Shown here piece by piece: positions 6,242 through 42,308 of a DNA stretch of 42,308 nucleotides (within the stretch, counting starts at the first letter, position 1; every line of letters starts with the position of its first letter). A program made the position numbers and the translations under genes. The stretch comes from a virus. The stretch covers positions 1 through 42,308 of IMG/VR virus record IMGVR_UViG_3300031673_000147. One strand, written 5' to 3'. The notes beneath the pieces were generated by a model that did not search any database, was not told the origin of the DNA, and saw nothing but the letters and a program-made list of their open reading frames with translations.

Positions 6242-9200
6242 ATGGCATGGGACTTTACAGGTGGAATAGGCACTAGTAGCAATGAAGAAAAGAAGAAAAA
6301 AAGTTCTTCATGGGATTTCACTGGTGGATTAGACTTTTCTTCAGTCACAGAAAAATCGGTAATATCCGATATCCCCGGCGAAGGATCCCCCGAGATAAAG
6401 CGCCTTGCCAGTGAGTTATTCGTGGATGCACCAACTCCGACTCCAGCACCGAAGCCAACCCCGGAGCAGTTGCACCCCACACTCTGGAAACTCACCACGC
6501 CCCTCCGGGCTATATTTGAGAACCCCTGGATGGAACGGGCAGGTCAAGCCGGGTCGGAAGTCATGGGCATGATGGACCGTCCGGACAAGGTTACTACCGG
6601 CAGTAAATTCGGTGATATCTCGGCTGACTTGGCTGGCGGACTGATGGGATTTGCCGGTAACCCTGCCAGCGTAGGAGCAAAGTTGTGGGGCGGCACGGAG
6701 CAGGCCATTAGCGGAGCCTTGCCGCTTATCCCCAAACTTAACGTACTTCCGGCGATAGCACAGACCGGCTTAAAGATGGGGGCGACCACGTTACCCTATG
6801 AGGCAACCAGGGCTATAGCTAACGACAGACCATTTGACGCTGGCGAGGCTGGAACTGCGGCGGCATCTAATGCACTGTTGGGTATGTTGTTGCATGGCGG
6901 CGGGAAGGCGCTGGCATCGTTCAGGAGGCCCGGGGTGGTATCGCCGGTTCCCGATGTAGCTATTCCGGGACGGGCTCCTGGAGTTAACCCCCCGGTAGTG
7001 CCAAGATTAAACGACTTCGCCACGGGCAGGGACTTCTCCGTCCGGACAGATCGGGGAATCACTCAGGGTGAATTGGCGGCGTTTAAGGGCGCACCGGCGC
7101 GAAGTGGGGGGCGCGTTTACACGCAGCCGAAATTCTCCCCGGTAGAAGCTATGAACGCCAGAAATGCGCTTTATGAGGCGGCGGGGGTTAAGCGGGAGTT
7201 AGCGCAAGGCATATTAGAACCATGGCAAATGACAAGGGTAGATTTTAACGAGGGCCACTTTCTGCAAGGGACACATGGAGCGAATGCTGCTAAAATAAGA
7301 GATAGCGGTGGCGTAAATAAGGGATTTTATATTTTAGCATCAGAACCCAATGCCATGAAAACAGCGTCATGGTATACAAAAGGTGGTACGCAGAGGCGCG
7401 GTATTGGGGAAACTGATTGGACAAAAACAAGACCCGGGAGTGTTTTCGTTCTTCCTTCTAAAGAAGAATATGGTCATATTGATATGATAAAAGGCTTAAG
7501 AGAACAGGGCGGTCGGATGATTGGCGGCAGTAATTACCCATACAAAACCATACCATATGTGGCCGAGATTCCTCCGGGCGTAGACCCACACAAGTTTTTA
7601 GTTGAAAAAGCTATCACTGAAGGAAAGCCAGTTCCAGCAAAAGTATTAAAAGACTACCCAGATCTACAAGCAAAGGCAGTGGGTACCCCAGGGAAAGGGT
7701 TTGCGTCGAAGCCTGCACTTCCACCGCTGAGGCCAATAGCCCCCAATGGGATACTTGGGCCGGGCTCGATCAGTGCGGCGAAGTTTACTATTCCTAAGAA
7801 ACAGTCTCTTATTCCTGGGACGAATGATCGTGTCCGGTCATTCCATGTTACGGGTATGAAATCTCCTATTACCGCGCCGGAAACAAAATCCGGCTTACTG
7901 ATGGACGTTTATGAGGGAGGTCCTGGCGTTTACCAGCGCATTTCTCATACTCAGACGGAGGCGGGGGCAAAGCAATACTTAGCAGAAGAGGGGCTTGATA
8001 AGTCCATTAACTACGTCCTGCACTCTAAGGACGTGTCCTCTTACAAGACGGGCCTTGCTAAGGAAGTTATCACCGAACTTCAAAACAAAGGCGGCATTAA
8101 CCAAGCTCTTGATGTTTATGAAAGTATGGCCGAACAGTTAACCCGGGCTGGCCAAATGACCGAGGCGGCAAAACTGTTCAATGCGCTTACCCCTGATGGC
8201 GTAGTCTTAAAGGCTACCCGGGATATTAAAAAGGCCGCTGAACAACTTCCTGCCGGAACGAAGAAGAAACACCAGGAAACGTCGCAGAAGGTACAGGAAA
8301 CCTTCGACCAGATTAACAAGGAAACGGTTGAACAGGTTATCGCGGAAACACCACAGCTTGACAAGATTCCGGCACAAGGTAAGCCTGGAATACCCCGTAC
8401 CGGAGATCAAACTGGTGGGCAGCCGAAGGAGAAGAAAGGACCTGCCCCTGCTGAAATGCTGGCGCAGCGGGTGAAACAACACGTTGCCGAACCGAAAGAA
8501 GGGGAAGCCGATCCTATTAAGGATATGGTGAATACCCTCTTTAAGAAGGCTAAAGAGGTTTTGCCGGAGCAGGAAGTTAAGCGCATCCCCCGTGACGAGA
8601 TGGAATTTATCAAAGAGGCTATTGCGAACAAGCAAAAGTATGGAACTGTTTGGAATGAGGCCAAAAAAGTCTTACAGGCCAAATACGGCGACAAACCCGA
8701 AGTTATGAATAGTGTCGAATCCTTTATCAGTCATTACCTTAATATTCCCTATTCTGAAAAATCCATCGGGAAAATTACCCGGGCGGGAATCAGGGGGGAA
8801 GAAATCGACCTTGCCCAAGTGGTACGCCAGCACTACACGATGCAAGATAAGACCGGCAGGGACTTGGTTAAGAAACTGGTGGACTTCGGCAGCCTGCCGC
8901 AGCGTGACGCCGAAATACTGGCGCTGGAAATCGGGACTAAGTTTGACGAATTGGCGGCCAGGAAGAAACAGCAGGTACTTGACCAGATATTTAAACAACG
9001 TGGACCAATTCAACGTAAACCTATTGACCAAAAAATCATTGAATGGTCAAACATGGGGGCACTGAGCGACGCGCAGTACAGGCGGCTTGTGGCTGAGAAG
9101 ATGGGGCTGCCGGTATTAACCGACGACGTTGCAAACTCCCTGCGAAAGCTTGCCAATGAGGCGCAAACGTCAACGGGCAGGAAAGCTGAGATTCTTCGGG

Positions 9201-10969
9201 CGCAGATTGTGGATTTAGTAGCGAAGCAGATACCGACACCGTTTTGGCGTAAGGTGGCCTCCATTCAGACCATGGCGCAACTCCTGAACCCCAAGACGGC
9301 GATCCGGAACATAGTTGGTAACTTCGGCTTTGCCGGTATGGAAAATGTCAGTGGCGTTGTCGGTGCTGGCGTTGATAAGGCGCTATCCCTGGCGACCGGC
9401 CAGCGTACAAAGGTACTGCCGAGCCTTGGCGTACAGGCGAAGGGCTTTAAACAGGGGTGGAAGTACGGCCTGGAAGATGCCCGGCTAGGAATTGACACTT
9501 CCGGCTTAACTGGAAAGTTTGATATTCCACTGAGTAGGACATTCCGCAAGGGGCCTTTAGGATTCGCGGAGAAGGCGCTCAATATTGAACTGAGGGCAAC
9601 TGACCGCGCTTTCTACCAGGCCGCTTATGATGGATCCCTAAATAACCAGATGAGGGCGGCGAAGGTAAACGCCCCTACGGAGGAAATGAGAAATGTCGCC
9701 CACCTAGACGGATTATACAAAACATTCCAGGACGATAACGCTTTAAGTAAATTATTTGTTGGGATTAAACAAGCCCTAAATAAAGTAACTGGTAGCAAGG
9801 AATTCGGCGCAGGGGATTTTATTATCAAATATCCTCGTACACCGGCTAATCTTCTGATGCGTGGGATTGATTATTCCCCGGCTGGATTTGTCAAGACTAT
9901 CCTGGAAGCGGCAAGACCTCTTGCCAAACAGCAGTTTAACCAGAAGGCTTTCGTCGAATCGTTCTCCCGGGCGCTCGTCGGATCTACCGCTTTATTTGGC
10001 ACTGGTGTGCTCCTGCATAAGTTAGGGATCATCACCGGTCGTCCGGCAGAGGATCGGGACTTATCTGAACTCAATAGACAGTCAGGTTTTGGCGAGTACC
10101 GCATTAATGCCAGTGCCTTAAAGCGCCTGGTGTTCGGTGGTGGCGATACAAAACCACAGAAAGGTGATACCATTGTTAGCTATGACTGGTTCCAGCCACA
10201 GTCGATACCGCTTGCCATCGGCGCAGATGTTGACGCTAATAAAGGAAGCGCAGCCGGACTTGCCGGAACCATCCTACAAGCCTTGGGAACGGGCGTAAAC
10301 GCCTTTGCAGAGCAGCCGGTAATGCAGGGTATCCAAACGGCATTTAGTGGCGGCTACGGCAACGCTGAACAGGGATTAATTAAGGTGCTCGAAGGTGTCC
10401 CCGCCTCGTTTATCCCAACACTATTGAACCAGGTTAAGCAACTGGCCGACAACCAACGGCGCGAGACTTACGACCCGAACAAAACCCAGGAGGCGCTCAA
10501 CAGGGCTGGGAATAAAATACCCGGTCTGGCTGGTAATCTCCCGAGGAAATACGGCACCCTCGGCCAACCACTGGAAACCTACCAAGGGGGAAGCAATAAC
10601 CCGGCTAACGTGTTCTTAAACCCGGCTTTCATCAATCAGTACAACCCATCCCGCGAGGTGGGCATGGTAAATAAAATCTACGAGCAGACCGGGGAGACAA
10701 GTCAAATCCCCCGGGTGATGCCGAAGAAGATCACCGTAAGCGGCAAGTCGTTTGTTTTGACCGGTCAGGAATATTCTAACTATCAGCGTATTGCTGGAGA
10801 ATTAACGCAGAAGGGATTCGCGAAGATGTCGGAAAACATGAAGCCTGAAGAAGCAGTCAAAAAGATGCAAGGGGTAATGTCCGACGCCAACGAAGCGGCC
10901 AAGACACAGATATTGAAGGCCCGGGGTGAACGGGTTTACAAAAAGGGCAGTGGGATAGTAGTAAAATAA
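6242..10969 (+). CDS. Giant internal virion / DNA-ejection protein (polyvalent-protein-like), with a possible ADP-ribosyltransferase-like segment
   Basis: 1575-aa ORF. N-terminal duplicated WDFTGG motif. aa ~340-440 carry GTHGAN...KGFYILAS...YVAEI. Long helical K/E/Q-rich middle region. No tail tube or sheath genes are present, so it is unlikely to be a tape measure. Confidence 0.75.
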   Translation: MAWDFTGGIGTSSNEEKKKKSSSWDFTGGLDFSSVTEKSVISDIPGEGSPEIKRLASELFVDAPTPTPAPKPTPEQLHPTLWKLTTPLRAIFENPWMERAGQAGSEVMGMMDRPDKVTTGSKFGDISADLAGGLMGFAGNPASVGAKLWGGTEQAISGALPLIPKLNVLPAIAQTGLKMGATTLPYEATRAIANDRPFDAGEAGTAAASNALLGMLLHGGGKALASFRRPGVVSPVPDVAIPGRAPGVNPPVVPRLNDFATGRDFSVRTDRGITQGELAAFKGAPARSGGRVYTQPKFSPVEAMNARNALYEAAGVKRELAQGILEPWQMTRVDFNEGHFLQGTHGANAAKIRDSGGVNKGFYILASEPNAMKTASWYTKGGTQRRGIGETDWTKTRPGSVFVLPSKEEYGHIDMIKGLREQGGRMIGGSNYPYKTIPYVAEIPPGVDPHKFLVEKAITEGKPVPAKVLKDYPDLQAKAVGTPGKGFASKPALPPLRPIAPNGILGPGSISAAKFTIPKKQSLIPGTNDRVRSFHVTGMKSPITAPETKSGLLMDVYEGGPGVYQRISHTQTEAGAKQYLAEEGLDKSINYVLHSKDVSSYKTGLAKEVITELQNKGGINQALDVYESMAEQLTRAGQMTEAAKLFNALTPDGVVLKATRDIKKAAEQLPAGTKKKHQETSQKVQETFDQINKETVEQVIAETPQLDKIPAQGKPGIPRTGDQTGGQPKEKKGPAPAEMLAQRVKQHVAEPKEGEADPIKDMVNTLFKKAKEVLPEQEVKRIPRDEMEFIKEAIANKQKYGTVWNEAKKVLQAKYGDKPEVMNSVESFISHYLNIPYSEKSIGKITRAGIRGEEIDLAQVVRQHYTMQDKTGRDLVKKLVDFGSLPQRDAEILALEIGTKFDELAARKKQQVLDQIFKQRGPIQRKPIDQKIIEWSNMGALSDAQYRRLVAEKMGLPVLTDDVANSLRKLANEAQTSTGRKAEILRAQIVDLVAKQIPTPFWRKVASIQTMAQLLNPKTAIRNIVGNFGFAGMENVSGVVGAGVDKALSLATGQRTKVLPSLGVQAKGFKQGWKYGLEDARLGIDTSGLTGKFDIPLSRTFRKGPLGFAEKALNIELRATDRAFYQAAYDGSLNNQMRAAKVNAPTEEMRNVAHLDGLYKTFQDDNALSKLFVGIKQALNKVTGSKEFGAGDFIIKYPRTPANLLMRGIDYSPAGFVKTILEAARPLAKQQFNQKAFVESFSRALVGSTALFGTGVLLHKLGIITGRPAEDRDLSELNRQSGFGEYRINASALKRLVFGGGDTKPQKGDTIVSYDWFQPQSIPLAIGADVDANKGSAAGLAGTILQALGTGVNAFAEQPVMQGIQTAFSGGYGNAEQGLIKVLEGVPASFIPTLLNQVKQLADNQRRETYDPNKTQEALNRAGNKIPGLAGNLPRKYGTLGQPLETYQGGSNNPANVFLNPAFINQYNPSREVGMVNKIYEQTGETSQIPRVMPKKITVSGKSFVLTGQEYSNYQRIAGELTQKGFAKMSENMKPEEAVKKMQGVMSDANEAAKTQILKARGERVYKKGSGIVVK

Positions 10970-15740: not shown

Positions 15741-16409
15741 TTATCTACCACTTATATCTGTTATTTGATATTTAGTTGTATTATTATCAAGAATAGGGTT
15801 TGATACAAACTTACCGATATCACCTGGTTGAAGGTTTTTAATTTTAGCGTATATTTTACTCACAACAACATCATTATTATCCATCAAGTTAATCCCTACA
15901 TTAACAAAACTGTAAGTATAATTAGAATTATTTTTAACGTACCCGACAAGAAACCATCCTGCCCCAGTATTAATTACCTGTGGCATTCCTGTTAATTCTA
16001 GTCCTGAATTTGTTGTAGTGGTTTGGGTTGGTTGAGTGGTTTGGGAAGGGTTATCATATTGCCCCGGCCAATCCGGGACCCCGGTATTCAACCAATCCGG
16101 CATAACATTACCCATATTTGCTTTATACCAATCACTCCCTGGTATTGCAGGATTATATGATGTTGCTTGTGAGGTTTGAGTTGTAATGTAAATGGCATTA
16201 TTGTCTTCATCCCAGTTAATAGAAGTATTTAGTGCTTCAGCCACGGCTCGGATCGGAACCATCGTTCTCCCGTCTACAATTAACGGCTGCACATCAGACG
16301 CCACCTCCTTGCCATTCACAAACACCCTCGGCCCCGGCTCAACATTGTACGCCCAGGCCACGCCAGTAAATAGGAACACCGCCAGAACTGCTAAGATAAC
16401 TTTTTTCAA
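15741..16409 (-). CDS. Secreted protein: signal peptide + copper-amine-oxidase-N 'stalk' domain + T/Q linker + FxLYD-like beta domain (moron)
   Basis: MKKVILAVLAVFLFTGVAWA signal peptide. VNGKEV...PLIVDGRTMVPIRAVAEALNTSINWDEDNNAIYIT matches the Cu_amine_oxidN1 pattern. TTG start after GGGGGG. Confidence 0.85.
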   Translation of the reverse strand: MKKVILAVLAVFLFTGVAWAYNVEPGPRVFVNGKEVASDVQPLIVDGRTMVPIRAVAEALNTSINWDEDNNAIYITTQTSQATSYNPAIPGSDWYKANMGNVMPDWLNTGVPDWPGQYDNPSQTTQPTQTTTTNSGLELTGMPQVINTGAGWFLVGYVKNNSNYTYSFVNVGINLMDNNDVVVSKIYAKIKNLQPGDIGKFVSNPILDNNTTKYQITDISGR

Positions 16410-16521: not shown

Positions 16522-16923
16522 TTAGCTTCCCATTGCGGCTGCCTGCTCGTTCTTTGATCTGTCTATCTGAATGAAAACTTCGGCAATAGCCTCAATTTTT
16601 TTGTAATCATTATCATTGAACTCCAGAAGTTTTTCTATGAGTTTCCGTTTCTCTTCTGGGATTTGGTTAACTGGTTTGAAATAGGCCGTTTTATTTTTTT
16701 CGTTTTGTTCGGTACTGGGAGTATAATTAAAAAAATAATTAGGCGAAACTCCAAAGAATCCTAAAAGAGATTCTATTGTTTCAAGACTTGGTTGTAATTT
16801 ACCATTTTCATATTTGGAGATATTGGACTTTTTTTGATTGATTATTTTACCCAACTCTTCCTGAGTAAGCCCTTCCCGCTCCCTTAATTCTCTCAATCTT
16901 TTACCAATCCCCACATTTACCAA
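16522..16923 (-). CDS. CI-like repressor (XRE-family HTH)
   Basis: IGKRLRELREREGLTQEELGKIINQKKSNISKYENGKLQPSLETIESL is a classic XRE HTH. The gene is divergent from a Cro-like gene. Confidence 0.85.
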   Translation of the reverse strand: MVNVGIGKRLRELREREGLTQEELGKIINQKKSNISKYENGKLQPSLETIESLLGFFGVSPNYFFNYTPSTEQNEKNKTAYFKPVNQIPEEKRKLIEKLLEFNDNDYKKIEAIAEVFIQIDRSKNEQAAAMGS

Positions 16924-23012: not shown

Positions 23013-24074
23013 GTGGACAAGTGGGAGATAAGACAAGGCGACTGTCTGGAAATAATGCGAACCATGCCGGATAAATCGGTTCACTGCTGCGTAACTTCGC
23101 CTCCTTACTGGGGCCTCCGGGATTATGGCGTAAGCGGCCAGCTGGGGTTCGAACCAACGCCGGAGGAATACGTCGCGAAGATGGTTGAGGTTTTCCGGGA
23201 AGTATGGCGTGTGCTTCGGGATGATGGGACGTTGTGGCTTAATTTGGGGGACTGTTATAATTCTCCAAACTCGCACAGTGGTAAAAGCTGTAAATATGGT
23301 GGTAGCCGAGATAAATATATAAATCGACTATTAGAACACAAAGCGATTAATCCCGGTACGACAAAGACACTTAAACCTAAAGACCTTGTGGGACAACCCT
23401 GGCGCGTAGCATTCGCCCTGCAAGCCGATGGATGGTATCTCCGGAGCGATATTATATGGAGTAAGCCTAACCCGATGCCCGAGAGTGTGACGGATAGGCC
23501 GACGAAGGCGCATGAATATATTTTTCTACTGAGTAAGAAAGGGCGGTATTACTACGACTACGAAGCAATTAAGGAGCCTACTGTTTACGATGGGAAAAAT
23601 AATGGGGTTGGGTTTGGCCACGGTACCGACAAGGAGTTAAGAGACAGAGATCGGGTTAGGGGATCGGTGGGCGTTATAAACAATCCGCTGAACAGTGCCC
23701 TTAGAAAAAGTGGCAACCTAGAAAGAAAAATTGGATCAGCTCGAGGGCGACCGGATTCGCATCTTGGTGGTTCTGTTCCCTGGGAAGGAAACACCCGCAA
23801 TAAACGCACCGTCTGGACCGTGGCCACTCAATCTTTTTCCGAAGCCCACTTTGCAACATTTCCGCCGAAGCTTATTGAGCCCTGTATTTTGGCAGGGTGT
23901 CCAGCTGGTGGCACAGTGTTAGACATCTTCTCTGGATCTGGCACAACGGGCATGGTGGCACTCAGACACGGGCGGCGGTATATCGGGATCGAGTTAAAAC
24001 CGGAGTATGTGGATATGTCAAAGCGCCGGATAGAGGACGATGCCCCGCTGTTTAACCGGTTGGCGATGGAGTGA
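23013..24074 (+). CDS. Orphan beta-class DNA methyltransferase (N4-C/N6-A family, SPPY motif IV)
   Basis: [17 protein letters not shown] (motif IV) near the N-terminus and [14 protein letters not shown] (motif I) near the C-terminus. No adjacent endonuclease gene. Confidence 0.9.
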
Positions 24075-29451: not shown

Positions 29452-30231
29452 TTAATACATACATTCGCAGGGAGTATAATCAATTCCCTGGATGTCGAAA
29501 AGCGTTCCCTTAACAATGCGCTTCCTGAAAGATTCAAGCGTAACATATTTTATTTTACCACCTCTGCGATCCTTGAGGATTGCAATCTTGGGATTAATCT
29601 TTTGCCGGAACAGCTTTTCGTATTGTTCAACCTCTTTAAATCGTTCTGGCCAAACTTCATAAAGTCGGGCAAAGTGTCCAAGGCCACCTTTTATGCAACG
29701 TCCTCCACAGTTTGAATGGCTAAAACCAAGGCGGTACATGCGGGGAATTTGTATTTTCCATTTTGATTCACAAGTAGCCTTCATATATTCTTTACTTAAC
29801 GGATTATCAACCAGGGGAAAGCGACATTCTACCGGGGCGTATCTATAAGAGAGGTTAATGGCCCGATGTTCTTCTTCCTTGCCGATGCCAAAATAGAGAA
29901 TCGGTTCAATGCCCTGGGACTGTAAGTCATCGACATATTTTAAGGTTTGCTTCGTCTTTAACTCAAGCGAACATTTGGCAAGGTTCTTGCCGACAAGGTA
30001 TCGAGTTTTAAACCAAACTTCGGGAGGCGTGCGACCGTCGATTCTGTGCGCGATATTGACGTTGTGGTGAGAAATTACCTCATCAATAAAACGGTAATTG
30101 TCCTCATCCTCCCATGTGGTATCTGTGTGTAAGGCAACGACACTTTCCCGGCCATATTGCTTTACAACATGATGTAGGGTGAAGGAACTTGATAAACCAC
30201 CCGATAGCAAAACGACGTGTAGTGTTTTCAC
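29452..30231 (-). CDS. PP-loop ATP pyrophosphatase superfamily protein (PAPS-reductase / DndC-like)
   Basis: N-terminus HVVLLSGGLSSSFTL is an SGGxxS PP-loop. Cys motifs CSLELK and CGGRC are present, and the C-terminus ends CECMY. GTG start overlaps the upstream stop. Confidence 0.75.
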   Translation of the reverse strand: MKTLHVVLLSGGLSSSFTLHHVVKQYGRESVVALHTDTTWEDEDNYRFIDEVISHHNVNIAHRIDGRTPPEVWFKTRYLVGKNLAKCSLELKTKQTLKYVDDLQSQGIEPILYFGIGKEEEHRAINLSYRYAPVECRFPLVDNPLSKEYMKATCESKWKIQIPRMYRLGFSHSNCGGRCIKGGLGHFARLYEVWPERFKEVEQYEKLFRQKINPKIAILKDRRGGKIKYVTLESFRKRIVKGTLFDIQGIDYTPCECMY

Positions 30232-32370: not shown

Positions 32371-33711
32371 ATGGCTGAAATTCGCATCTCAAACCTGATC
32401 GCTCCGTCATTTCACCCGGTTCATGCCGACATTAAGCGAGGTGGGCATACTCATTATTGGGCCAAAGGTGGCCGGGGTAGTACCAAGTCTTCTTTTGCAG
32501 CCCTGGAAATAGTCTTGGGCATCATGAAGGACCCTAACGCCAACGCCTGCGCCCTACGGAAGGTCAAGGATACGCTCAAGGATAGTGTATATATACAACT
32601 CTGCTGGGCAATAGATGCGCTAGGGGTGGAACGGTATTGGCATCAGAATACCAGTCCGTTAAGCCTGACATATATCCCTACGGGGCAGAAGATACTATTC
32701 CGGGGGGCTGATAATCCTAAGAAAATCAAGTCCTTTACATTTCGGCGTGGTTACTGCAAGTTCTTTTGGTATGAGGAGGTTGACGAGTTTAACGGCACCG
32801 AAGAAATAAGGATGATCAATCAGACATTGCTTCGTGGTGGTTCTAAGTTCGTCGTATTCTACACCTACAACCCGCCTAAGAGTGCGGCGAATTGGGTTAA
32901 TACGGAGGTGCAACTGACCCGGCCTGACCGCATGGTACACCACAGCAGCTATTTGACCGTCCCCCCGGCCTGGCTTGGTGAGCAGTTTATTGCAGAGGCC
33001 GAACATTTGAAGGTCACAAAGCCGTTATCATACGAGCATGAGTATATGGGTGAAGTTACCGGCACCGGTGGCGAGGTATTCGGTAACGTGCAGATCCGGC
33101 CAATTAGCGACGAGGAAATAAAAGAGTTTGAGACTATACGCCGAGGAATGGACTTTGGGTACGCCATTGACCCGTTTGCTTATCTCGTTTGCAGCTATAA
33201 CCGTAAGCTAAAGCGGCTGTTTATCTACCATGAGTATTACAAGGTTGGATTATCTAACCACGCAGCATATACTCATATCGAGCAGGAGAATACTTCTAAC
33301 GAGCCAATCCTGGCAGACTCAGCGGAGCCCAAGAGCATCAACGAGCTATGCCAGTATGGACTCAGGGTGGCACCGGTCAAGAAGGGGCCTGACAGTATTG
33401 AGTATGGCATCAAGTTCTTGCAAAGTCTGGAAGCTATCATTATCGACGACAAGCGATGCCCGGAGACAACCCGGGAGTTCTGCAACTACGAGTTAGACAA
33501 GGACGTTAACGGCAACTGGAAGGCAGGATACCCAGACAAGAATAACCATACGATTGATGCGGCGCGATATGCCATGAATTATGAGTGCTTGCAGTTTCGC
33601 GATGAAGAGAAAGCGAAGCCGCAGCGTTGTAATTGGAAGCACGAAACGCCGAAACCTGACCCCTACACCGGGGCGAAGCCAGACAATAGCTATATTAATT
33701 TTGGAGGTTGA
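32371..33711 (+). CDS. terL: Terminase large subunit (PBSX-type)
   Basis: Walker A region YWAKGGRGSTKSS; ...FWYEEVDEF (Walker B-like); C-terminal nuclease region with HTIDAARY. The ORF is open from 32332. Confidence 0.92.
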   Translation: MAEIRISNLIAPSFHPVHADIKRGGHTHYWAKGGRGSTKSSFAALEIVLGIMKDPNANACALRKVKDTLKDSVYIQLCWAIDALGVERYWHQNTSPLSLTYIPTGQKILFRGADNPKKIKSFTFRRGYCKFFWYEEVDEFNGTEEIRMINQTLLRGGSKFVVFYTYNPPKSAANWVNTEVQLTRPDRMVHHSSYLTVPPAWLGEQFIAEAEHLKVTKPLSYEHEYMGEVTGTGGEVFGNVQIRPISDEEIKEFETIRRGMDFGYAIDPFAYLVCSYNRKLKRLFIYHEYYKVGLSNHAAYTHIEQENTSNEPILADSAEPKSINELCQYGLRVAPVKKGPDSIEYGIKFLQSLEAIIIDDKRCPETTREFCNYELDKDVNGNWKAGYPDKNNHTIDAARYAMNYECLQFRDEEKAKPQRCNWKHETPKPDPYTGAKPDNSYINFGG

Positions 33712-33713
33712 CA

Positions 33714-33968
33714 ATGGAATACACCATCATGGGCATCGCCTTTGGGCTGTGCCTTTTCCTATGCCCCTTAATGGCCTATAGGCGCGGCCTACAGGATGGG
33801 CTAGCCGTTGGTCAAGGTAAGACGCCGGAACCACTTAAGGGGCCGCTACAGGTTGCCAAAGAGTACAAGGAGCAGAGACAAGTTAAGCAGGACCAGGACA
33901 AGTTCCGCGACGGCCTGGCTAATCTTCTAGCCTACGATGGCAGTCCTCAAGAGGTGGTGAAAGAATGA
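33714..33968 (+). CDS. Small TM protein between terL and portal
   Basis: ATG 7 nt after GGAGG. N-terminal helix IMGIAFGLCLFLCPLMAY. Confidence 0.65.
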   Translation: MEYTIMGIAFGLCLFLCPLMAYRRGLQDGLAVGQGKTPEPLKGPLQVAKEYKEQRQVKQDQDKFRDGLANLLAYDGSPQEVVKE

Positions 33969-35827
33969 GCGATACGACACGCGAATGGGATCTTTACGAA
34001 AAAGGGAAGGATTACAACCGCAAGATTGACCCCAGTTTATACACCACCGTTGACCGCAACGAGCGCATGTATGCAGGCGATCAGTGGAAAGGGGTAGTCT
34101 CCAACGGCCTCCCAACCCCTGTATTCAACATCTTTAAGCGCATTATTAACTACTTTATCGCAGCGATAATGTCTAGCGCGGTCAAGATGCAGTTCACGCC
34201 GGAAAATATCGGAGACGATACGCAGGACCCGCAGGAATTAGAGGTCAAACAGGCTGCTGAAATCATCTCAAAATATACTGAAACCCTTTGGGAAAATCTG
34301 AAGATGGATAATAACCTTCGTCAGGTGCTATTGGATGCTGCGCTGTCTGGGGACGCTGCCGCTTATAACTGGTGGAATCCTGAGATTGACACCGGGCAGG
34401 AGGCCCAGGGTGATATTGAGATTGAACTGCCGGATAATGTAAATGTCTTCTTCGGCAACCCAAACGATTACCGGGTACAGAAGCAGCCTTATAATATCAT
34501 CTCTTTTCGTGAGTTAGTTTCTAACCTCCGGGATGAGGCTCGCAAAAATGGTGTCGAGGAATACAAGGTCAATATGATCAGTGGCGACACCGACACCCAG
34601 GAGCAGTCTGGAGATATGGCCAAGATTGAGCTTGACACCTCCGGCGAGAATACCGGTAAGACTACGGCAATCATTAAGTTTTGGCGCGACACCAAGACTA
34701 AGACAATCTGGTGGAACAAATCCACCCGGGCGGTAACAATCCGAGAGAACGTCGATACCGGACAGAAACTTTACCCCATCGCCTGGATGAACTGGGATAA
34801 GCGCAAGAACAGTTATCACGGCCAGGCGGTAGGTACCGGACTGGTACCGAATCAGATTTTCATTAACAAGATGTTTGCTATGGTCATGCTGAATCTGATG
34901 TACAACGCCTTCCCTAAGGCTGTATATGATTCCAGTCTTATCAAGGAATGGAATAATCAGATCGGGCAGGCTATTCCTGTTACTGGCTCGCAGGATGTTA
35001 CGAAAGTTGCGACATTCTTACAGCCTGGGAATATGTCAAATCAGGTAATGCAGGTCATTGACGCGAGTATCAACTATACCAAGGATATGTTAGGCGCGTC
35101 TGACGCTGCCCTGGGTGACGTAAAGCCCGATAACCACGCGGCTATTATCGCAGTCCAGCAGGCGGCGGCTGTCCCCCTGGAGACAATCAAGGCCAACCTG
35201 TACCAGTTCGTTGAGGATATCGGGTATATTTGGCTTGATATGATGGCTACGAAGTACGGAAAGCGTAATATCTCGATTAGTGTTAACGGGCAGCGCCAGG
35301 TAGTGCCATTTGATTTTAACCGACTCAAGGATATGCGCTTAAAGCTCAAGGTTGATGTCGGCCCGTCCTCCTATTGGAGCGAAATCACGGCTATGCAGAC
35401 CCTTGACAACCTGCTGCAAGCTGAGAAAATAAACTTTTTGCAGTATCTGGAGAGGATTCCAAACGGTGTTATACCGCAAAAACAAGAGTTGATTGATGAA
35501 ATTAAGCAGATCGAACAGCAGAAAGCCAATACCCCTCCGGCACCAACTGACTTGCCAAATGTGTCAATTAGTATGCGAGACTTGCCTGTTAGTGGGCAGA
35601 TTCAGGCGGCTGCAATGGCGGGGATCCAACTTAAGCCGGAGGATTTTCAGGCTATGCTTACAGCGCCGGAGCAACAAATGCCAGGTCAGGCGCCGGGGCA
35701 GGTAGATCCGCAGCAACTATTAAGCCAACTGTCACCGGAGCAGCAGCAGGCGTTTATGCAACTGCCTCCCGAACAGCAAGCCGAAATAATGCAGCAAATG
35801 CAACAGATGATGGGAGGTAACGCATGA
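33965..35827 (+). CDS. Portal protein (Q-rich C-terminal tail)
   Basis: 620 aa immediately after terL. ATGA coupling. Size and position are typical for a portal. The C-terminus is PEQQQAFMQLPPEQQAEIMQQMQQMMG. Confidence 0.85.
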   Translation: MSDTTREWDLYEKGKDYNRKIDPSLYTTVDRNERMYAGDQWKGVVSNGLPTPVFNIFKRIINYFIAAIMSSAVKMQFTPENIGDDTQDPQELEVKQAAEIISKYTETLWENLKMDNNLRQVLLDAALSGDAAAYNWWNPEIDTGQEAQGDIEIELPDNVNVFFGNPNDYRVQKQPYNIISFRELVSNLRDEARKNGVEEYKVNMISGDTDTQEQSGDMAKIELDTSGENTGKTTAIIKFWRDTKTKTIWWNKSTRAVTIRENVDTGQKLYPIAWMNWDKRKNSYHGQAVGTGLVPNQIFINKMFAMVMLNLMYNAFPKAVYDSSLIKEWNNQIGQAIPVTGSQDVTKVATFLQPGNMSNQVMQVIDASINYTKDMLGASDAALGDVKPDNHAAIIAVQQAAAVPLETIKANLYQFVEDIGYIWLDMMATKYGKRNISISVNGQRQVVPFDFNRLKDMRLKLKVDVGPSSYWSEITAMQTLDNLLQAEKINFLQYLERIPNGVIPQKQELIDEIKQIEQQKANTPPAPTDLPNVSISMRDLPVSGQIQAAAMAGIQLKPEDFQAMLTAPEQQMPGQAPGQVDPQQLLSQLSPEQQQAFMQLPPEQQAEIMQQMQQMMGGNA

Positions 35828-36441
35828 GAGGTTTAATCTGCGTACCTCATACCGGCTTTTTCCCTTACCAATTCGTTGTAGCCTGGACGCAGTTATTATT
35901 CCATACCCGGCAGTTTTGCGATCAACTGGACTTTCGCTTTGTTGGCAGTAGTTTAATCTACGAGGCCCGGGAGCAGGCTGCCGAGCACTGCCTGAAAGAA
36001 GGATATGAATGGCTATTCTTCCTTGATAGCGACATGGAACCGGCGCCGGACACAATAGAGCGCCTTTTGAGATGGGATAATCCGGTAGTTTCGGCGATGG
36101 CTTTTAAGCGGATGCAGCCGTATACGCCCTGCTTTTATCCCCGGGTTGAGTTTGACGGCAAAGAGGCTAAAGTGCAGACAGCCGACGATTGGGCGGAGGG
36201 ACTTGCCGAGGTTGAGGGCGTGGGAATGGCCTGCTGCCTGATTAAGCGAGAGGTGATTGAACAGACACCGAAACCATTATTCTTCCCCATGCCGGTGCTT
36301 GCCGAGGATTTGGGTTTTTGTAAACGGGTGCGGGATGCTGGGTTTAAGGTTTACGTGGACACATCCCTTTGCTGCGGTCATGTAGGGACGCAGACAATTA
36401 CTGACCAACATTACCGAAAATATAAGGAGGCTATATGCTGA
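35824..36441 (+). CDS. Glycosyltransferase (GT2-like, DxD = LDSDM)
   Basis: ATGA overlap with the portal stop. ...EGYEWLFFLDSDMEPAPDTIERLL...GVGMACCLIKREV fits a GT-A fold pattern. Confidence 0.75.
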   Translation: MRGLICVPHTGFFPYQFVVAWTQLLFHTRQFCDQLDFRFVGSSLIYEAREQAAEHCLKEGYEWLFFLDSDMEPAPDTIERLLRWDNPVVSAMAFKRMQPYTPCFYPRVEFDGKEAKVQTADDWAEGLAEVEGVGMACCLIKREVIEQTPKPLFFPMPVLAEDLGFCKRVRDAGFKVYVDTSLCCGHVGTQTITDQHYRKYKEAIC

Positions 36442-37679
36442 TCGGAATACTTCTAGTCCGGAATGAGGCTGACCGGTGGCTTCGGCAGGTCTTGGAGCAG
36501 ATGCGCCAGGTATGCGATAAAATCATCGTCCTGGACGATTGCAGCACTGACAACACGCCGAATATTTGCCTCGAATACGGGGCTATCGTTTGTTACTCTC
36601 AGGAATCGGCATGGGCCACAAATGAGGTATCCCAACGTAAATTCCTGTGGTGCATGGCTTTATCGATAGCCAAGAACGGAGATTGGATTCTCTGCCTTGA
36701 TGCTGATGAGACCATTCCCAATATCGACCTGCTACCTACCTGCATCAAATCAGCCGAAGAATGCGGCGCTGACGGGCTTGCGTTTAACCTTTACGATATG
36801 TGGAGCCCAACTCATTACCGGGACGATCCGCTATGGACGGCCCATACCAGGGATTGGGTAATGTGTGTCCGGTACGATGCCGGCAAGGAATATACCTGGC
36901 GGGAAACCGCCCTGCACTGCGGCAGGTTCCCGGTGAACGCCGGTGGCATGGCAGGTAGCACGGGGCTGAAAATTCAGCATTGGGGGTGGAGTACGCCGGG
37001 GGACAGACAAAACAAGTATGAGAGATATATAATGGCTGACCCGGATGGTAAATACGGAATAATGGAACAGTATCTTAGTATTTTAGATGACAAGCCGAAC
37101 CTTAAACCTTTTTTCAGTGACACAAACAGTAAAGAGTGGTGGGAGAACGAGTTTAAGGCAAATTGGCGAACTGGCATAGATGGGGTAGAACAAACGAGAT
37201 TCTTTATGAAACGCATTATGGAGGTGGTGAAATTCTCTGAAAATGCAACTGTTCTTGATTGGGGTTGCGCAATGGGGCAGGGTGTAGAAGTACTAAATAA
37301 GGCAGGATATAGCGCAGAGGGGTATGATTTTTCGGAAACCGCTATAAAAACAGCAAAGGGAATGTACCCAGAGTACAATTTTACCCATGAATGGCCCCAG
37401 AAAACCTATGACGTTGTAATAACGTCAAATTGTCTCGAACATTTCACTGATCCCATAGGCCAAACGAAGGAGATACTGAAGTTATCCCATAAATATCTTG
37501 TTATTATGACCCCGTACAACCAAACACCGTCAGACGTTCACCCTGTAACGATAAACGAAAACACTTTCCCTCAGGAACTAAGCGGGTTTAGGTTGAAGCA
37601 TAGTTGCATTGTGCCGCCAAAAAATATCTTCTATGATGGCGGAGAACAAATATTATTTATATATGAGAGGTATATATGA
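36435..37679 (+). CDS. Bifunctional GT2-like glycosyltransferase / class I SAM-dependent methyltransferase
   Basis: N-terminus: IGILLVRNEADRWL...IIVLDDCSTDNT...LCLDADET. C-terminus: VLDWGCAMGQGVEVL...YDFSETAI...DVVITSNCLEHFTDP (MTase motifs I-III). Overlaps the previous stop. Confidence 0.8.
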   Translation: MLIGILLVRNEADRWLRQVLEQMRQVCDKIIVLDDCSTDNTPNICLEYGAIVCYSQESAWATNEVSQRKFLWCMALSIAKNGDWILCLDADETIPNIDLLPTCIKSAEECGADGLAFNLYDMWSPTHYRDDPLWTAHTRDWVMCVRYDAGKEYTWRETALHCGRFPVNAGGMAGSTGLKIQHWGWSTPGDRQNKYERYIMADPDGKYGIMEQYLSILDDKPNLKPFFSDTNSKEWWENEFKANWRTGIDGVEQTRFFMKRIMEVVKFSENATVLDWGCAMGQGVEVLNKAGYSAEGYDFSETAIKTAKGMYPEYNFTHEWPQKTYDVVITSNCLEHFTDPIGQTKEILKLSHKYLVIMTPYNQTPSDVHPVTINENTFPQELSGFRLKHSCIVPPKNIFYDGGEQILFIYERYI

Positions 37680-38404
37680 GGATTCTCATAGCCGCCCCGG
37701 TCCGTCAGAAGGAAGAAATCTTCAAGGCATATCTGGAAAGCCTGAATAATCTCGAGGTTCCCGAAGGGGCGGAGATTGACAGGTTTTTTATTTTCCACAA
37801 CAGCCCCGAACTGCTGCCGCTAATAAAGGACAAATCTTTTTATGCGGAATACCGGACCGATGAATCGTACAAAACCGATGAAACTTCGCATCACTGGACA
37901 GGCGCCAACGTGTCCCATGTTGCCGGGATGAAGAATAGTATCCTTGACTTTGCCAAGAAGCACAACTATGACTATGTTTTCTTTGTGGATAGCGACCTTA
38001 TCCTGCACCCAAGGACTCTGAACACTCTCCTTGACGCCAAGAAGGATATTGTCGCCGAGATAATTTGGACCCGCTGGACGCCGGATGACATCGAGGCCCC
38101 CAACGCCTGGGACTTCAACATGTTTGAATTTAGACACGAGAAACGTCTGGAGGAATGGAGAGTGCCTGGTTTGTACCCAATCGGCATGACCGGGGCCTGC
38201 ATCCTGATCAGTAAGCCGGTTATTAAGGCCGGTATCAATTACGACCGGGTATACAATATCAGTTATTGGGGTGAGGACCGTCATTTCTGTATCCGGGCAG
38301 CAGCGCACGACTTCGGTATTTGGCTTGACACTCACTACCCTTGTATTCACCTTTACAGGGATAGTGAGTTTGAGAAATACAGGCAAGGCGAACTTCGTTT
38401 TTAA
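37676..38404 (+). CDS. Glycosyltransferase (GT-A-like, DxD = VDSDL)
   Basis: ATGA overlap with the previous gene. ...HNYDYVFFVDSDLILHPRTLNTLL... Confidence 0.7.
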   Translation: MRILIAAPVRQKEEIFKAYLESLNNLEVPEGAEIDRFFIFHNSPELLPLIKDKSFYAEYRTDESYKTDETSHHWTGANVSHVAGMKNSILDFAKKHNYDYVFFVDSDLILHPRTLNTLLDAKKDIVAEIIWTRWTPDDIEAPNAWDFNMFEFRHEKRLEEWRVPGLYPIGMTGACILISKPVIKAGINYDRVYNISYWGEDRHFCIRAAAHDFGIWLDTHYPCIHLYRDSEFEKYRQGELRF

Positions 38405-38406
38405 CC

Positions 38407-38437
38407 AACCCCATGCAAAGTTGAGGGGTTATTTTTA
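38407..38437 (+). terminator. Terminator-like hairpin closing the glycosylation cassette
   Basis: AACCCC-12 nt-GGGGTT followed by ATTTTTAT. Confidence 0.55.
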
Positions 38438-38469: not shown

Positions 38470-39297
38470 ATGGATGAACCAATTTTAAGCACTGCCACAC
38501 CACCGGCAGACCCTATCCCCGCAGCACCGCCGAGTGATCCTGTAATACCAACAGACCCACCGGTACAAACCCCGCCGAATGACCCGGCGCCAAGCGATCC
38601 GGCACCGCCGCAGACCATTAAAATTAAGTATAACCATGAGGACAAGGAGATTCCCTATGATGAGGCTGTTCAGCATATTCAAAAGGGGCTTAATTACGAC
38701 AAGGTTTATGAGCGGTATAACGAGTTAGCCAATCACCCTGGCCTCACCTACCTTAACGAGATTGCTCAGGCTAATGGCGTAACTGTGGATCAACTGGTTG
38801 GCCACTGGAAACAGCAGAATGAACAGGCAAAGCTGGATGAACTGATCCAAAACAATATTCCCGAAGATGTTGCCCGGGAAATCATCGAGGGAAGAAAATT
38901 CCGACAGCAGTATACCCAGGAAAAAATGACCGCTGAGCAGCAACGGAAACAACAGGGTATGTATGTTGAATTTATGGAAAAGTTTCCAGAGGTTAAGCCG
39001 GAAGATGTCCCGGCAGAGGTTTGGCAAGAGGTAAATAGTGGTAAAGCATTGGTTGATGCGTACACCAGGCATGAAAACCAGGCGCTAAAAGATCGTCTTG
39101 CCAAGATGGAAGAAACCCTGCAAACCCGTCAGAAAAACGACCAAAACGCACAATCAACCCCTGGTAGCGTTACCGGGAAAGGAAATGTACCAACGGGTTA
39201 TTATTCCAAGGAACAAGTTGAGAAGATGGATCCCAAAGATGCCGCGAAACCAGAGGTTTACAAGGCCATTATGGATTCCATGAAGCACTGGAAATAA
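38470..39297 (+). CDS. Scaffolding protein (Pro-rich N-terminus, coiled-coil body)
   Basis: Lies directly upstream of the capsid gene. E/K/Q-rich helical sequence. Confidence 0.8.
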   Translation: MDEPILSTATPPADPIPAAPPSDPVIPTDPPVQTPPNDPAPSDPAPPQTIKIKYNHEDKEIPYDEAVQHIQKGLNYDKVYERYNELANHPGLTYLNEIAQANGVTVDQLVGHWKQQNEQAKLDELIQNNIPEDVAREIIEGRKFRQQYTQEKMTAEQQRKQQGMYVEFMEKFPEVKPEDVPAEVWQEVNSGKALVDAYTRHENQALKDRLAKMEETLQTRQKNDQNAQSTPGSVTGKGNVPTGYYSKEQVEKMDPKDAAKPEVYKAIMDSMKHWK

Positions 39298-39314: not shown

Positions 39315-40154
39315 ATGTCCGTAAATAACTTTATCCCGACCATTTGGACGGCGACAATGCTCAAAGAGCGTGCTCGCAAGTTCGTTGCTATTAACAACTG
39401 CAACCGCGACTATGAAGGAGAAATTAAGCAAAAGGGTGATAAGGTCAAGATCAACAGTATCGGCGATATCACCATCAGCGATTACACCAAGAACAACTTC
39501 GCCACCGGGTTAGCCCTGCAAACCCTGGACGATGCCTCCACCATGCTGGAGATCACCCAGGCCAAGTATTACCACTTTGCCGTTGACGATGTGGACAAGG
39601 CACAGGCAAACCAAAAGGTTATGAACGAGGGTATGAGGAAAGCCGGCCTCGGGCTTAACAACCTTGCTGATCAGTTTATTTTCGGAAAGTACACCGAGGC
39701 CGGGAACACTGTAACCGCTACCGTTACATCGGCCAACATCATCAGTAGCCTGGCGGCTGCGATTCAAAAACTGTACGAAAACGATGTACCTGAGGGTGAA
39801 GAAATCGCCTTTGAGGTATCTCCGCAGGTTTACACCAAGCTCGTCCTGGCGAAAATCGTGAAGGATTACGGTAACACACAAATCCTTGAAAACGGCAAGG
39901 TTGGGCAGTATCTGAACTGCACGATTTATCTGTCCAATAACGTTGTCCAGTCTGGTACGCTGAGCAATTGCCTACTGAGGACCAAGGCGGCTATTTCCTA
40001 TGCTGAACAACTTATTGATACAGAGGCGTATAGGCTTACCAGCGAAGGCTTTGGTGATGCCGTTAAGGGCCTGCAACTGTATGGCGCCAAAGTGGTTAAA
40101 CCCAAAGAGATTGTTAACTTGGCACTTACGACTTCAGCTGAATCCACAATTTAA
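39315..40154 (+). CDS. Major capsid protein (P22-coat-like short family)
   Basis: N-terminus FIPTIWTATMLKERARKFVAINNCNRDYEGEIKQKGDKVKINSIG matches the conserved start of this coat family. Strong RBS; follows the scaffold gene. Confidence 0.88.
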   Translation: MSVNNFIPTIWTATMLKERARKFVAINNCNRDYEGEIKQKGDKVKINSIGDITISDYTKNNFATGLALQTLDDASTMLEITQAKYYHFAVDDVDKAQANQKVMNEGMRKAGLGLNNLADQFIFGKYTEAGNTVTATVTSANIISSLAAAIQKLYENDVPEGEEIAFEVSPQVYTKLVLAKIVKDYGNTQILENGKVGQYLNCTIYLSNNVVQSGTLSNCLLRTKAAISYAEQLIDTEAYRLTSEGFGDAVKGLQLYGAKVVKPKEIVNLALTTSAESTI

Positions 40155-40173: not shown

Positions 40174-40545
40174 ATGACGCAAGCTATCACCGTATCCACT
40201 GCCACCCGAGACGGCTCGGTTGACGTTACCCTGTACGCTGCACAGGCGGCCAACACGGTTGACTTTTCTACCAAGCAAAATGAAAAGATCGTGATCATCG
40301 TTCAGAATACCAATGATGCCGTTGCAGTAGAAACGGCCACCATTACCATTTCCCCGGGTGGTTTCTGGCGCAAGGATCTTGGTACCCTGTCCGTTGACGT
40401 TGCGGACGCTAGTGTTTACAAGCAAATCGGCCCCCTGGATTCCGCGCGGTTCAAAGGTACCAACGGTCTGGTCACTATTAATGTGGCCGTAACCCAATCC
40501 GGTACTGTTTCGAGCGTGAAGCTCGGCGTGATTAATCTTCCGTAG
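40174..40545 (+). CDS. Beta-rich virion protein (possible decoration protein)
   Basis: 123 aa with an AAGGAG RBS. A terminator hairpin follows. Confidence 0.7.
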   Translation: MTQAITVSTATRDGSVDVTLYAAQAANTVDFSTKQNEKIVIIVQNTNDAVAVETATITISPGGFWRKDLGTLSVDVADASVYKQIGPLDSARFKGTNGLVTINVAVTQSGTVSSVKLGVINLP

Positions 40546-40593: not shown

Positions 40594-40896
40594 TTGAAAT
40601 ACAGATTTTTTGGAGAACCGGGTTTGCATATAATGGATTCTGAAACAGGCCACCCGTTATATAAGTTTAATGACAACGGGGAGATTATTTTAAGCGACGA
40701 CAACCCTTTCCTTAAGCGGATGATGAACCATTACCAACATGAGCCAGTGGAACCAGTTGCTGTTAACGCGCAGCCGGAACAGGATGTCACTGCCGAGCCA
40801 TTTAAGTTTAACTGCCGGAAGTGTAGTTTTGAAACCAATAACCACGGGGCATTTCTGGCACACTGCAAGAAAGAACATCCGAAAGAGGTGAAGTAG
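40594..40896 (+). CDS. Small protein with a classical C2H2 zinc finger
   Basis: FNCRKCSFETNNHGAFLAHCKKEH fits C-x2-C-x12-H-x4-H. TTG start after GAGGTGAGG. Confidence 0.65.
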   Translation: MKYRFFGEPGLHIMDSETGHPLYKFNDNGEIILSDDNPFLKRMMNHYQHEPVEPVAVNAQPEQDVTAEPFKFNCRKCSFETNNHGAFLAHCKKEHPKEVK

Positions 40897-42115: not shown

Positions 42116-42286
42116 ATGACCCAAGAGGTTAAATGCACCGAATGCGGGTATGTCCTGGCAACTATTAACGCCAGGGATAATAAGATTAAATTTACTATGC
42201 CGAATGACCCTCAGGAATATCTACTATCAAACACAGCGCATTTGTTAATATGCCCCGGCTGTGGAATGGAAAATAAGATTTATTAA
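42116..42286 (+). CDS. Zinc-ribbon protein (CTEC...CPGC)
   Basis: The ORF is open from 42098; the ATG at 42116 follows GTGGGG. Its 3' end lies in the 55-nt terminal repeat. Confidence 0.65.
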   Translation: MTQEVKCTECGYVLATINARDNKIKFTMPNDPQEYLLSNTAHLLICPGCGMENKIY

Positions 42287-42308
42287 TCACTCCCCAGGAT
42301 AAAGAGAG
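42254..42308. repeat. Terminal direct repeat, copy 2
   Basis: Identical to nt 1-55. Confidence 0.95.

Follow-up and report, generated by a model that had tools for sequence, protein, structure and literature searches.

Three glycosyltransferase (GT) genes, the middle one fused to an S-adenosylmethionine (SAM) methyltransferase (MTase), form a cassette between the portal and scaffold genes of the virus record IMGVR_UViG_3300031673_000147, which was analysed over its full length of 42,308 nt (the window). The cassette probably glycosylates a protein of the virion, as the original prediction had proposed from the DNA letters. Support for this reading comes from the fixed position of the cassette, the family-wide adjacency of such enzymes to head genes, the recurrence of MTases in the same slot and the covariation of Ser/Thr residues in the capsid tail with the presence of the cassette. 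The chances that the major capsid protein (MCP) is the main acceptor are judged to be about even. The enzyme families and folds, the catalytic motifs, the operon architecture, the conserved position and the family-wide capsid or portal adjacency were observed directly and are described below.

In the proposed mechanism, three soluble cytoplasmic GTs would be made from the late head-gene transcript alongside the portal, scaffold and capsid proteins and would use host nucleotide sugars to assemble a short O-linked glycan on a virion head protein. The most likely site would be the Ser/Thr residues in the exposed tail at the MCP C-terminus (…LALTTSAESTI). Each GT would contribute one sugar type or linkage, perhaps in stepwise order, and the fused MTase domain would methylate one of the glycan sugars. 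The enzymes themselves are not expected inside the particle. The pay-off could be a shielded surface or a particle of changed stickiness.

Architecture of the cassette and identity of its enzymes

The late region is ordered TerS (31786), TerL (32332), an 86-amino-acid (aa) open reading frame (ORF), portal, GT1, GT2-MT, GT3, a scaffold-like protein, MCP and a 123-aa protein. The features from the portal gene onwards are as follows.

33965-35827, plus strand: portal gene, 620 aa (P22_portal, 33.9 bits; phrog_156 portal, E 1.4e-32); its stop overlaps the GT1 start
35824-36441, plus strand: GT1, 205 aa, soluble GT-A glycosyltransferase with DxD motif D68-S69-D70
36435-37679, plus strand: GT2-MT fusion, 414 aa, a GT-A domain and a class I SAM MTase domain
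36435-37124, plus strand: GT2 domain, approximately residues 1-230, with the VLDDCSTDNT loop and a DAD motif
37125-37679, plus strand: MTase domain, approximately residues 231-414, class I SAM methyltransferase
37676-38404, plus strand: GT3, 242 aa, Anp1/GT25-like GT-A glycosyltransferase with the DxD motif in VDSDL
38407-38437, plus strand: weak hairpin and T-run, in the 65-nt gap ahead of the scaffold gene
38470-39297, plus strand: scaffolding-like protein, 275 aa (phrog_14606, E 2.2e-22), the downstream edge of the cassette slot
39315-40154, plus strand: MCP, 279 aa (phrog_267 major head protein, E 2.2e-46; Phage_capsid_4, 28.2 bits)
40128-40151, plus strand: MCP C-terminal tail TTSAESTI, the putative O-glycosylation site
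40174-40545, plus strand: 123-aa decoration-like protein after the MCP (phrog_24894, E 2.3e-7), whose position is kept in relatives

On re-reading, the coordinates first given for the portal gene, the three cassette genes and the scaffold start were exact, and direct reading confirmed a start/stop overlap at each of the three cassette starts (ATGA, ATGCTGA and ATGA). A Shine-Dalgarno (SD)-like GGAGG/GAGAGG lies 4-7 nt 5' of each of these starts, and TerL, the 86-aa ORF, the portal gene, GT1, GT2-MT and GT3 are chained through overlapping or near-overlapping start and stop codons with SD sites. Neither promoter-like sites (19 versus 17.3 in shuffled sequences) nor terminator-like sites (17 versus 11.7) are enriched in the region.

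Two details of the first description were revised. The cassette had been credited with its own hairpin and T-run terminator. The hairpin at 38407-38437 has a stem of 6 bp and a loop of 12 nt, and ATTTTTAT comes after it; its energy lies within the shuffled range (z = -1.37, with 19 of 200 shuffles as stable), and the terminator scan gave no call at this position. A cassette-specific terminator was rejected because the folding energy is at chance level. The cassette had also been described as A+T-rich, which holds for the MTase domain alone (GC 0.411; GC at third codon positions, GC3, 0.427) and does not hold for GT1, the GT2 domain or GT3. The GC contents of these three are 0.510, 0.512 and 0.487, respectively, versus 0.490 for the portal gene and 0.482 for the MCP gene, and their GC3 of 0.56-0.60 matches that of the portal and capsid genes. 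A compositionally foreign origin of the whole cassette was rejected, since its GC equals that of the head-gene neighbours except in the MTase domain; the low GC of that domain fits a separate, later acquisition.

All of the motifs from which the enzymes were first recognized (LDSDM, LDADE, VDSDL, VLDDCSTDNT and VLDWGCAMGQG) are present in the three ORFs. Profile searches, which could have placed the ORFs in non-GT families, put all of them in GT-A families with a class I MTase in the middle protein, and every structure search agrees.

GT1 is sub-threshold in Pfam (22.1 versus a cutoff of 23.3) and matches phrog_1574 (E 1.3e-16), which carries the PHROGs annotation 'unknown function', and phrog_12406 glycosyltransferase (E 3.4e-12). 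Its AF2 model (pLDDT 94.9) has a clear GT-A fold and returned 205 matches in the PDB at E ≤ 0.001, with GT-A enzymes leading. The top Foldseek match is STIV A197 (E 4e-12, TM 0.67/0.72); further structural neighbours are the collagen hydroxylysine GTs COLGALT1 and LH3, Mnn9, mimivirus R699 and ppGalNAc-T2. Residues D68, S69 and D70 are invariant in an alignment of 32 GT1 homologues.

The structure model of GT2-MT is confident, like that of GT1. In Pfam, the protein matches Glycos_transf_2 (36.5 bits, cutoff 23.3) and Glyco_tranf_2_4 (37.5 bits). The DxD motif of the GT2 domain is D89-A90-D91, and in the homologue alignment D35, S37, D39, T41, D89 and D91 are invariant or nearly so. The domain matches GmaR chain 22ao_A (phmmer E 5.7e-9, residues 5-197), resembles the peptide S-glycosyltransferases SunS and ThuS by fold and is usually found in relatives as a standalone protein of approximately 228 aa. 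The MTase domain matches Methyltransf_23 (42.5 bits, cutoff 27, E 7.4e-11), with Methyltransf_31 and Methyltransf_11 also above cutoff, and its SAM-binding motif I is VLDWGCAMGQG (residues 272-282). Its fold matches are class I MTases, including the sugar MTases MtmC, KijD1, RebM and AtmM as well as small-molecule and lipid MTases; the fusions to GTs argue for a sugar as the substrate.

GT3 matches Anp1 in Pfam (35.1 bits, cutoff 28.8) and is closest to procollagen galactosyltransferase 1 (COLGALT1; E 3.3e-7). It is a paralogue of GT1 (24% identical, E 7e-12), with VDSDL aligned to the DSD of GT1, and is 26% identical to ORF15 of Methanobacterium virus PhiF1. No transmembrane segments were found in the three cassette proteins (maximum 19-residue Kyte-Doolittle hydropathy 1.05-1.39; GT1 1.05). 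An NCBIfam scan gave nothing above cutoff, so that no donor sugar can be assigned.

The cassette slot and the GT1-type family in other viruses

The suggested synteny comparison with relatives was performed, and 1-4 GTs were found to be kept between portal and scaffold at 40-90% identity (loci L003, L006, L013/14, L097 and L105-L122); over all relatives, the slot holds from 0 to 4 GTs. The cassette as such holds its position down to approximately 45% identity. IMG/VR contains near-identical contigs as well as relatives (65-68% identity) whose middle gene has no MTase. The scaffold gene precedes the MCP gene in all relatives, and in L006 and L013/L014 the order is portal, GT, GT, GT, scaffold, MCP. 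In some relatives the slot also houses β4GalT-like GTs, standalone SAM MTases or radical-SAM/SPASM enzymes. The standalone MTases, which are unrelated to the fused one, occur in the slot of L021, L032 (two), L117 and L161. In L096 (10001-11149 and 11146-11682), a prophage in a metagenome-assembled genome (MAG) of the Bacillota, the same MTase domain is joined to a GT1-type enzyme (382 aa) rather than to GT2, and double GTs of the GT2+Anp1 type also occur among the relatives. Such domain fusions would tie the GTs and the MTase into one pathway, and the GT2-MT fusion is best read as one version of a recurring theme of GT plus MTase.

Two other enzymes were noted in these slots. A 3'-5' exoribonuclease Rv2179c-like gene sits amid the GTs of L096, and radical SAM + SPASM enzymes of approximately 252 aa lie beside GTs in L022 (3946-4701) and L164 (5225-5983). 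The latter could tailor the sugar or the protein; we know of no precedent for radical SAM + SPASM enzymes in phage head modules.

Beyond these relatives, a GT1-family profile matches at least 580 viral contigs in IMG/VR and, in the exhaustive library, 1,442 protein clusters with E ≤ 1e-30. For the best 80 loci, genes were called and the first sizeable plus-strand ORF 5' of the GT run was taken as the upstream neighbour; the resulting 61 non-redundant proteins were classified by a Pfam batch search and local iterative searches. The neighbour is an HK97-type capsid protein in 39 of 61 cases and a portal protein in 19 (58/61 together). This adjacency spans three unrelated head-module types: portal-scaffold-capsid, as in the present phage; TerL-portal-protease-capsid, as in the Eubacteriales MAG prophage L012, with the order MCP, GT, GT, connector; and a capsid of approximately 410-460 aa followed by an approximately 131-aa protein and two GTs. 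In mycobacteriophage Optimus the order is MCP, GT, kinase, MTase, GT, GT, GT, and in a freshwater podovirus from Manatee Spring it is MCP, hypothetical protein, GT, tail tubular protein A. The PhiF1 GT lies 5' of the annotated capsid gene and directly 3' of two large unannotated ORFs. The family thus ranges over Clostridia phages, HK97-type prophages, marine and freshwater podoviruses, cluster J mycobacteriophages and a methanogen virus.

We propose tentatively, and with slightly less than even confidence, that the approximately 205-aa A197-like GTs (phrog_1574) are a dedicated capsid-glycosylating family that travels with capsid and portal genes in unrelated tailed viruses. If so, virion glycosylation, with added methylation and perhaps modification by radical-SAM enzymes, would be widespread and diversifying in tailed phages and no peculiarity of actinophages, and a function would be assigned to a large PHROG of 'unknown function'.

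A further gene run was seen in Caudovirales GX15bay from mangrove soil (L178, MK557849.1:13126-18249), in which six glycosyltransferase genes stand together with a methyltransferase gene. Another GT2-family gene lies approximately 4.7 kb upstream, and all of these genes lie 5' of the terminase. This run is another candidate virion-glycan locus.

Acceptors and competing explanations

The C-terminus of the MCP differs between phages with and without the cassette. After a conserved PKE strand, cassette-bearing (GT+) MCPs end in …AESTI, …SETSI, …AESSGx or …PSNET, whereas the MCPs of phages with the scaffold gene directly after the portal gene (GT-) end in …GAEA, …GTEV or …GVEA. Within this one capsid family, Ser or Thr follows the conserved C-terminal Glu in 19 of 21 GT+ and two of eight GT- MCPs (Fisher p = 0.0014, a value that overstates independence because only two or three independent events underlie it). 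In a neighbour-joining tree built without the tail, the cassette-less clade is sister to one GT+ clade within a larger GT+ group. This nested position is suggestive, and would fit a loss of the acceptor following the loss of the enzymes.

Several observations weigh against virion glycosylation, or against the capsid tail as its site. The tail correlation reduces to approximately one gain, one loss with a tail change and one further, recent cassette loss (L133) in which the Ser/Thr tail is still present. Two GT+ MCPs have no Ser/Thr after the last Glu by this rule, although in L166 Ser-Ser does stand after the conserved Glu. Many HK97-type capsids beside members of the GT family end without a Ser/Thr tail (…AFVKIVK, …FVRFKKN). 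The nearest characterized enzymes are protein- or peptide-directed or viral (STIV A197, COLGALT1, LH3, ppGalNAc-T2, GmaR and SunS/ThuS), but the GT-A fold is generic, so that the acceptor does not follow from the identity of the best structural matches. A Pfam scan of the three cassette proteins detected neither a TPR nor any other domain for substrate recognition. Homologues of GT2 exist in cellular loci that are not prophages, and the comparison with gp35-38 of mycobacteriophage Corndog, described below, gave no BLASTP match and hhalign probabilities of 1-5%. Finally, the modification is read from the genes of an uncultured phage. A Ser/Thr tail as a general trait of GT-adjacent capsids was rejected, as it is not universal among the HK97-type, and the idea of an acceptor site in the tail is accordingly limited to the capsid family of this phage.

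A serious sub-alternative, possible although clearly less probable than modification of the MCP, is that the virion is glycosylated on another protein: the 123-aa protein, the portal, the scaffold or the N/S/T-rich tail proteins of 1120 and 1575 aa. The HK97-type capsids without a Ser/Thr tail are in keeping with it, as is the position of the GTs after the portal gene rather than the capsid gene in the family of this phage. The tail proteins are uncharacterized and have no family assignment, and mycobacteriophages carry the modification on the tail tube too, beside the capsid (PMC11600133). On the other side, the MCP is the commonest neighbour across the GT family (39/61, as given above), and among the acceptors originally listed it is the capsid C-terminus that gained support, its tail residues co-varying with the cassette. 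The 123-aa protein did not: its differences between GT+ and GT- phages track clade divergence only and were rejected as a sign of an acceptor.

A second explanation, which we consider unlikely, is that the target is a polymer of the host envelope (teichoic acid, an S-layer glycan or another receptor), modified late in infection or in lysogens so that the receptor is masked and superinfection or the loss of progeny on debris is reduced. Homologues are labelled 'glycosyltransferase involved in cell wall biosynthesis' in the sources, and Gorillibacterium and a Clostridiaceae MAG carry GT2-type homologues in cellular loci that are not prophages. Wall teichoic acid is glycosylated without transmembrane segments by soluble GT-A enzymes such as the prophage-encoded TarP. 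The genomic context fits this explanation poorly. The genes are translationally coupled into the head operon, with approximately 19 kb separating them from the repressor region (16522-16923), and do not form a repressor-side moron with its own promoter; the recurrence of capsid or portal adjacency in unrelated phages and the head-operon coupling would both be left unexplained. The cassette proteins are without transmembrane segments, scans of the phage ORFs found no flippase or polyprenol-linked partner genes, and late expression would allow little time for remodelling of the wall.

It is very improbable that the cassette acts on a free small molecule or oligosaccharide, or that its genes are decaying passengers without a role in the virion. 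The fluctuation of content among relatives (0-4 GTs, with MTases and radical SAM enzymes gained or lost) and the existence of whole clades without the cassette would suit such an origin, but in the family alignments the catalytic residues are invariant over 23-90% identity, the models are confident, and the genes keep their place and are translationally coupled; a locus that diversifies a surface glycan is also expected to vary.

Least probable of all is glycosylation and methylation of the phage DNA before packaging as an anti-restriction hypermodification: phage GTs are classically DNA-modifying, adjacency to packaging genes could in principle couple modification with packaging, and the phage carries an N6/N4 DNA methylase (23013-24074), but a Pfam scan of 20 ORFs of the 12-31 kb region revealed no nucleotide-metabolism genes and none for base hypermodification, such as a dCMP/dUMP hydroxymethylase, a thymidylate-synthase-like protein or a DNA kinase, the closest enzymes act on proteins or peptides and not on DNA, and the GT family accompanies capsid genes rather than replication modules. 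Modification of DNA or of the envelope had been named as alternatives at the outset, and both are thus disfavoured by gene content and the head-operon context.

Known systems, host and remaining features of the genome

In the literature searched, virion glycosylation of tailed phages is reported only for actinobacteriophages. In that literature, glycosylation of the virion by enzymes of the phage has been demonstrated only for a few mycobacteriophages, namely Che8 (cluster F, gp108-110), Corndog (cluster O, gp35-38) and Myrna, in which it shields the particles from antibodies. The glycans are said, in a 2023 abstract by Freeman, to sit on C-termini. Capsid and tail tube are both modified in mycobacteriophages (PMC11600133; PMC12363180). 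Cluster O mycobacteriophages encode an O-MTase and three GTs between portal and protease, and these enzymes are made in infected cells and are absent from virions (PMC4351075).

Corndog is the closest known system, as an analogue and not a homologue. Its gp35-38, like the present cassette, occupy the slot directly after the portal gene and before the next head gene, show start/stop overlaps and combine GTs with an O-MTase. The present cassette differs from those of Corndog, Che8 and Myrna in that the MTase is fused to a GT and the host is an anaerobic member of the Bacillota rather than an actinobacterium; the phage also has podovirus-like features, with a portal of the P22 type and a scaffold, and its head module yielded no protease gene. 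The mycobacteriophage modification is demonstrated, whereas this phage is known from its genes alone. Orthology with the mycobacteriophage (Corndog) system was rejected on the lack of BLASTP or hhalign homology, and the Che8 GT is a weak fold match (rank 15, TM 0.29).

Mycobacteriophage Optimus (cluster J, Omegavirus) offers homologous enzymes in a different arrangement. Optimus gp12 is homologous to GT1 (31% identical, E 5e-16), and gp21 matches GT2 around the DxD region, at the level of distant homology. As in the present phage, the GTs and an MTase (gp12-gp21) lie inside the head module, there between the MCP and the head-tail connector; the Optimus cluster differs in following the capsid gene rather than the portal gene and in including a kinase. 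No report was found in the literature of cluster J virions having been examined for glycosylation.

STIV A197 shares with GT1 the GT-A fold and a minimal size (191-205 aa) and is its best structural match (TM approximately 0.7), although the two sequences do not match significantly (E 0.59). A197 is essential to its virus and presumed to glycosylate the major capsid protein B345, which does carry glycans (PMC10551542). It differs in belonging to an archaeal double-jelly-roll virus, and its donor and acceptor are likewise unproven. The multidomain protein A064R of PBCV-1 has GT domains and, at its C-terminus, a methyltransferase responsible for O-methylation of a sugar in the glycan of the capsid protein (PMC7019647), and it shares the functional logic of the GT2-MT fusion; it differs in having two rhamnosyltransferase domains, N-linked glycans and a eukaryotic host. 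The top 50 viral fold matches do not include A064R, and no homology is claimed.

GmaR transfers GlcNAc onto flagellin in the cytoplasm (PMC9638930). The GT2 domain aligns with its GT domain over approximately 190 residues and has a fold like that of SunS/ThuS; the phage enzyme differs in having no TPR or other substrate-binding extension. The non-prophage loci of Gorillibacterium and the Clostridiaceae MAG encode double-GT proteins of approximately 515 aa beside GT2-TPR proteins (L175:6892-9542; L176:8001-14567), with no flagellin genes nearby in those loci. They may represent a host protein-glycosylation system ancestral to the phage enzymes.

The same genetic logic as in the mycobacteriophage glycosylation loci is therefore found in a podovirus-like phage of anaerobic Firmicutes. 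New here are the non-homologous enzymes, the different host phylum and particle type, the GT-MTase fusion and a large unannotated GT family associated with head modules. If the enzymes decorate capsids, glycan coats would be a common and fast-diversifying layer of phage surface biology. They would affect particle stability and adhesion and, more speculatively, recognition by capsid-sensing host defences, and would matter for phage therapy and for how virion proteomics is read. The small single-domain GTs and the GT-MTase fusion could then also be used for the glyco-engineering of protein nanoparticles.

Bases 1-56 of the window recur exactly at 42253-42308, and the assembly is complete, circular or circularly permuted, with a length of approximately 42,252 bp; the structural module crosses the ends of the window. 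A blastn search of the head region against 50,697 phage records gave no match, which indicates that there is no close cultured relative among deposited phages. Prophage relatives reside in MAGs of Bacillota, Peptococcaceae and Clostridiales, and the phage encodes an Amidase_3 endolysin and a protein with a Cu_amine_oxidN1 domain (15741-16409, minus strand) beside helix-turn-helix (HTH) repressor-like genes. Together these point to an anaerobic Firmicute as the host. The ORFs that were scanned include no integrase. The initial description of a clostridial-type podovirus is reasonable in the light of the Bacillota-MAG prophages, and the P22-type portal and SU10-type adaptor fit a podovirus-like particle. 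The Cu_amine_oxidN1 protein resembles a moron or a surface protein typical of Clostridia.

The 86-aa ORF between TerL and portal (33708-33968) has a hydrophobic N-terminus. Most of the relatives examined have an ORF of 77-98 aa at this position (50-54 aa in the closest ones), and in Optimus a small 'membrane protein' likewise lies immediately 5' of the portal gene. A 100-aa ORF of the structural module (40594-40896) carries a C-terminal C2H2 zinc-finger-like motif (CRKCSF…HCKKEH) with a Pfam match below cutoff. For the giant ORFs of the tail region (716-4078, 1120 aa; 6242-10969, 1575 aa), the sole Pfam or PHROG match is to a 100-residue stretch of phrog_20852. A PAPS-reductase-like ORF (29452-30231, minus strand; weak match, 23.6 bits) lies between the modules for replication and packaging, where the GC content is low (0.41-0.44).

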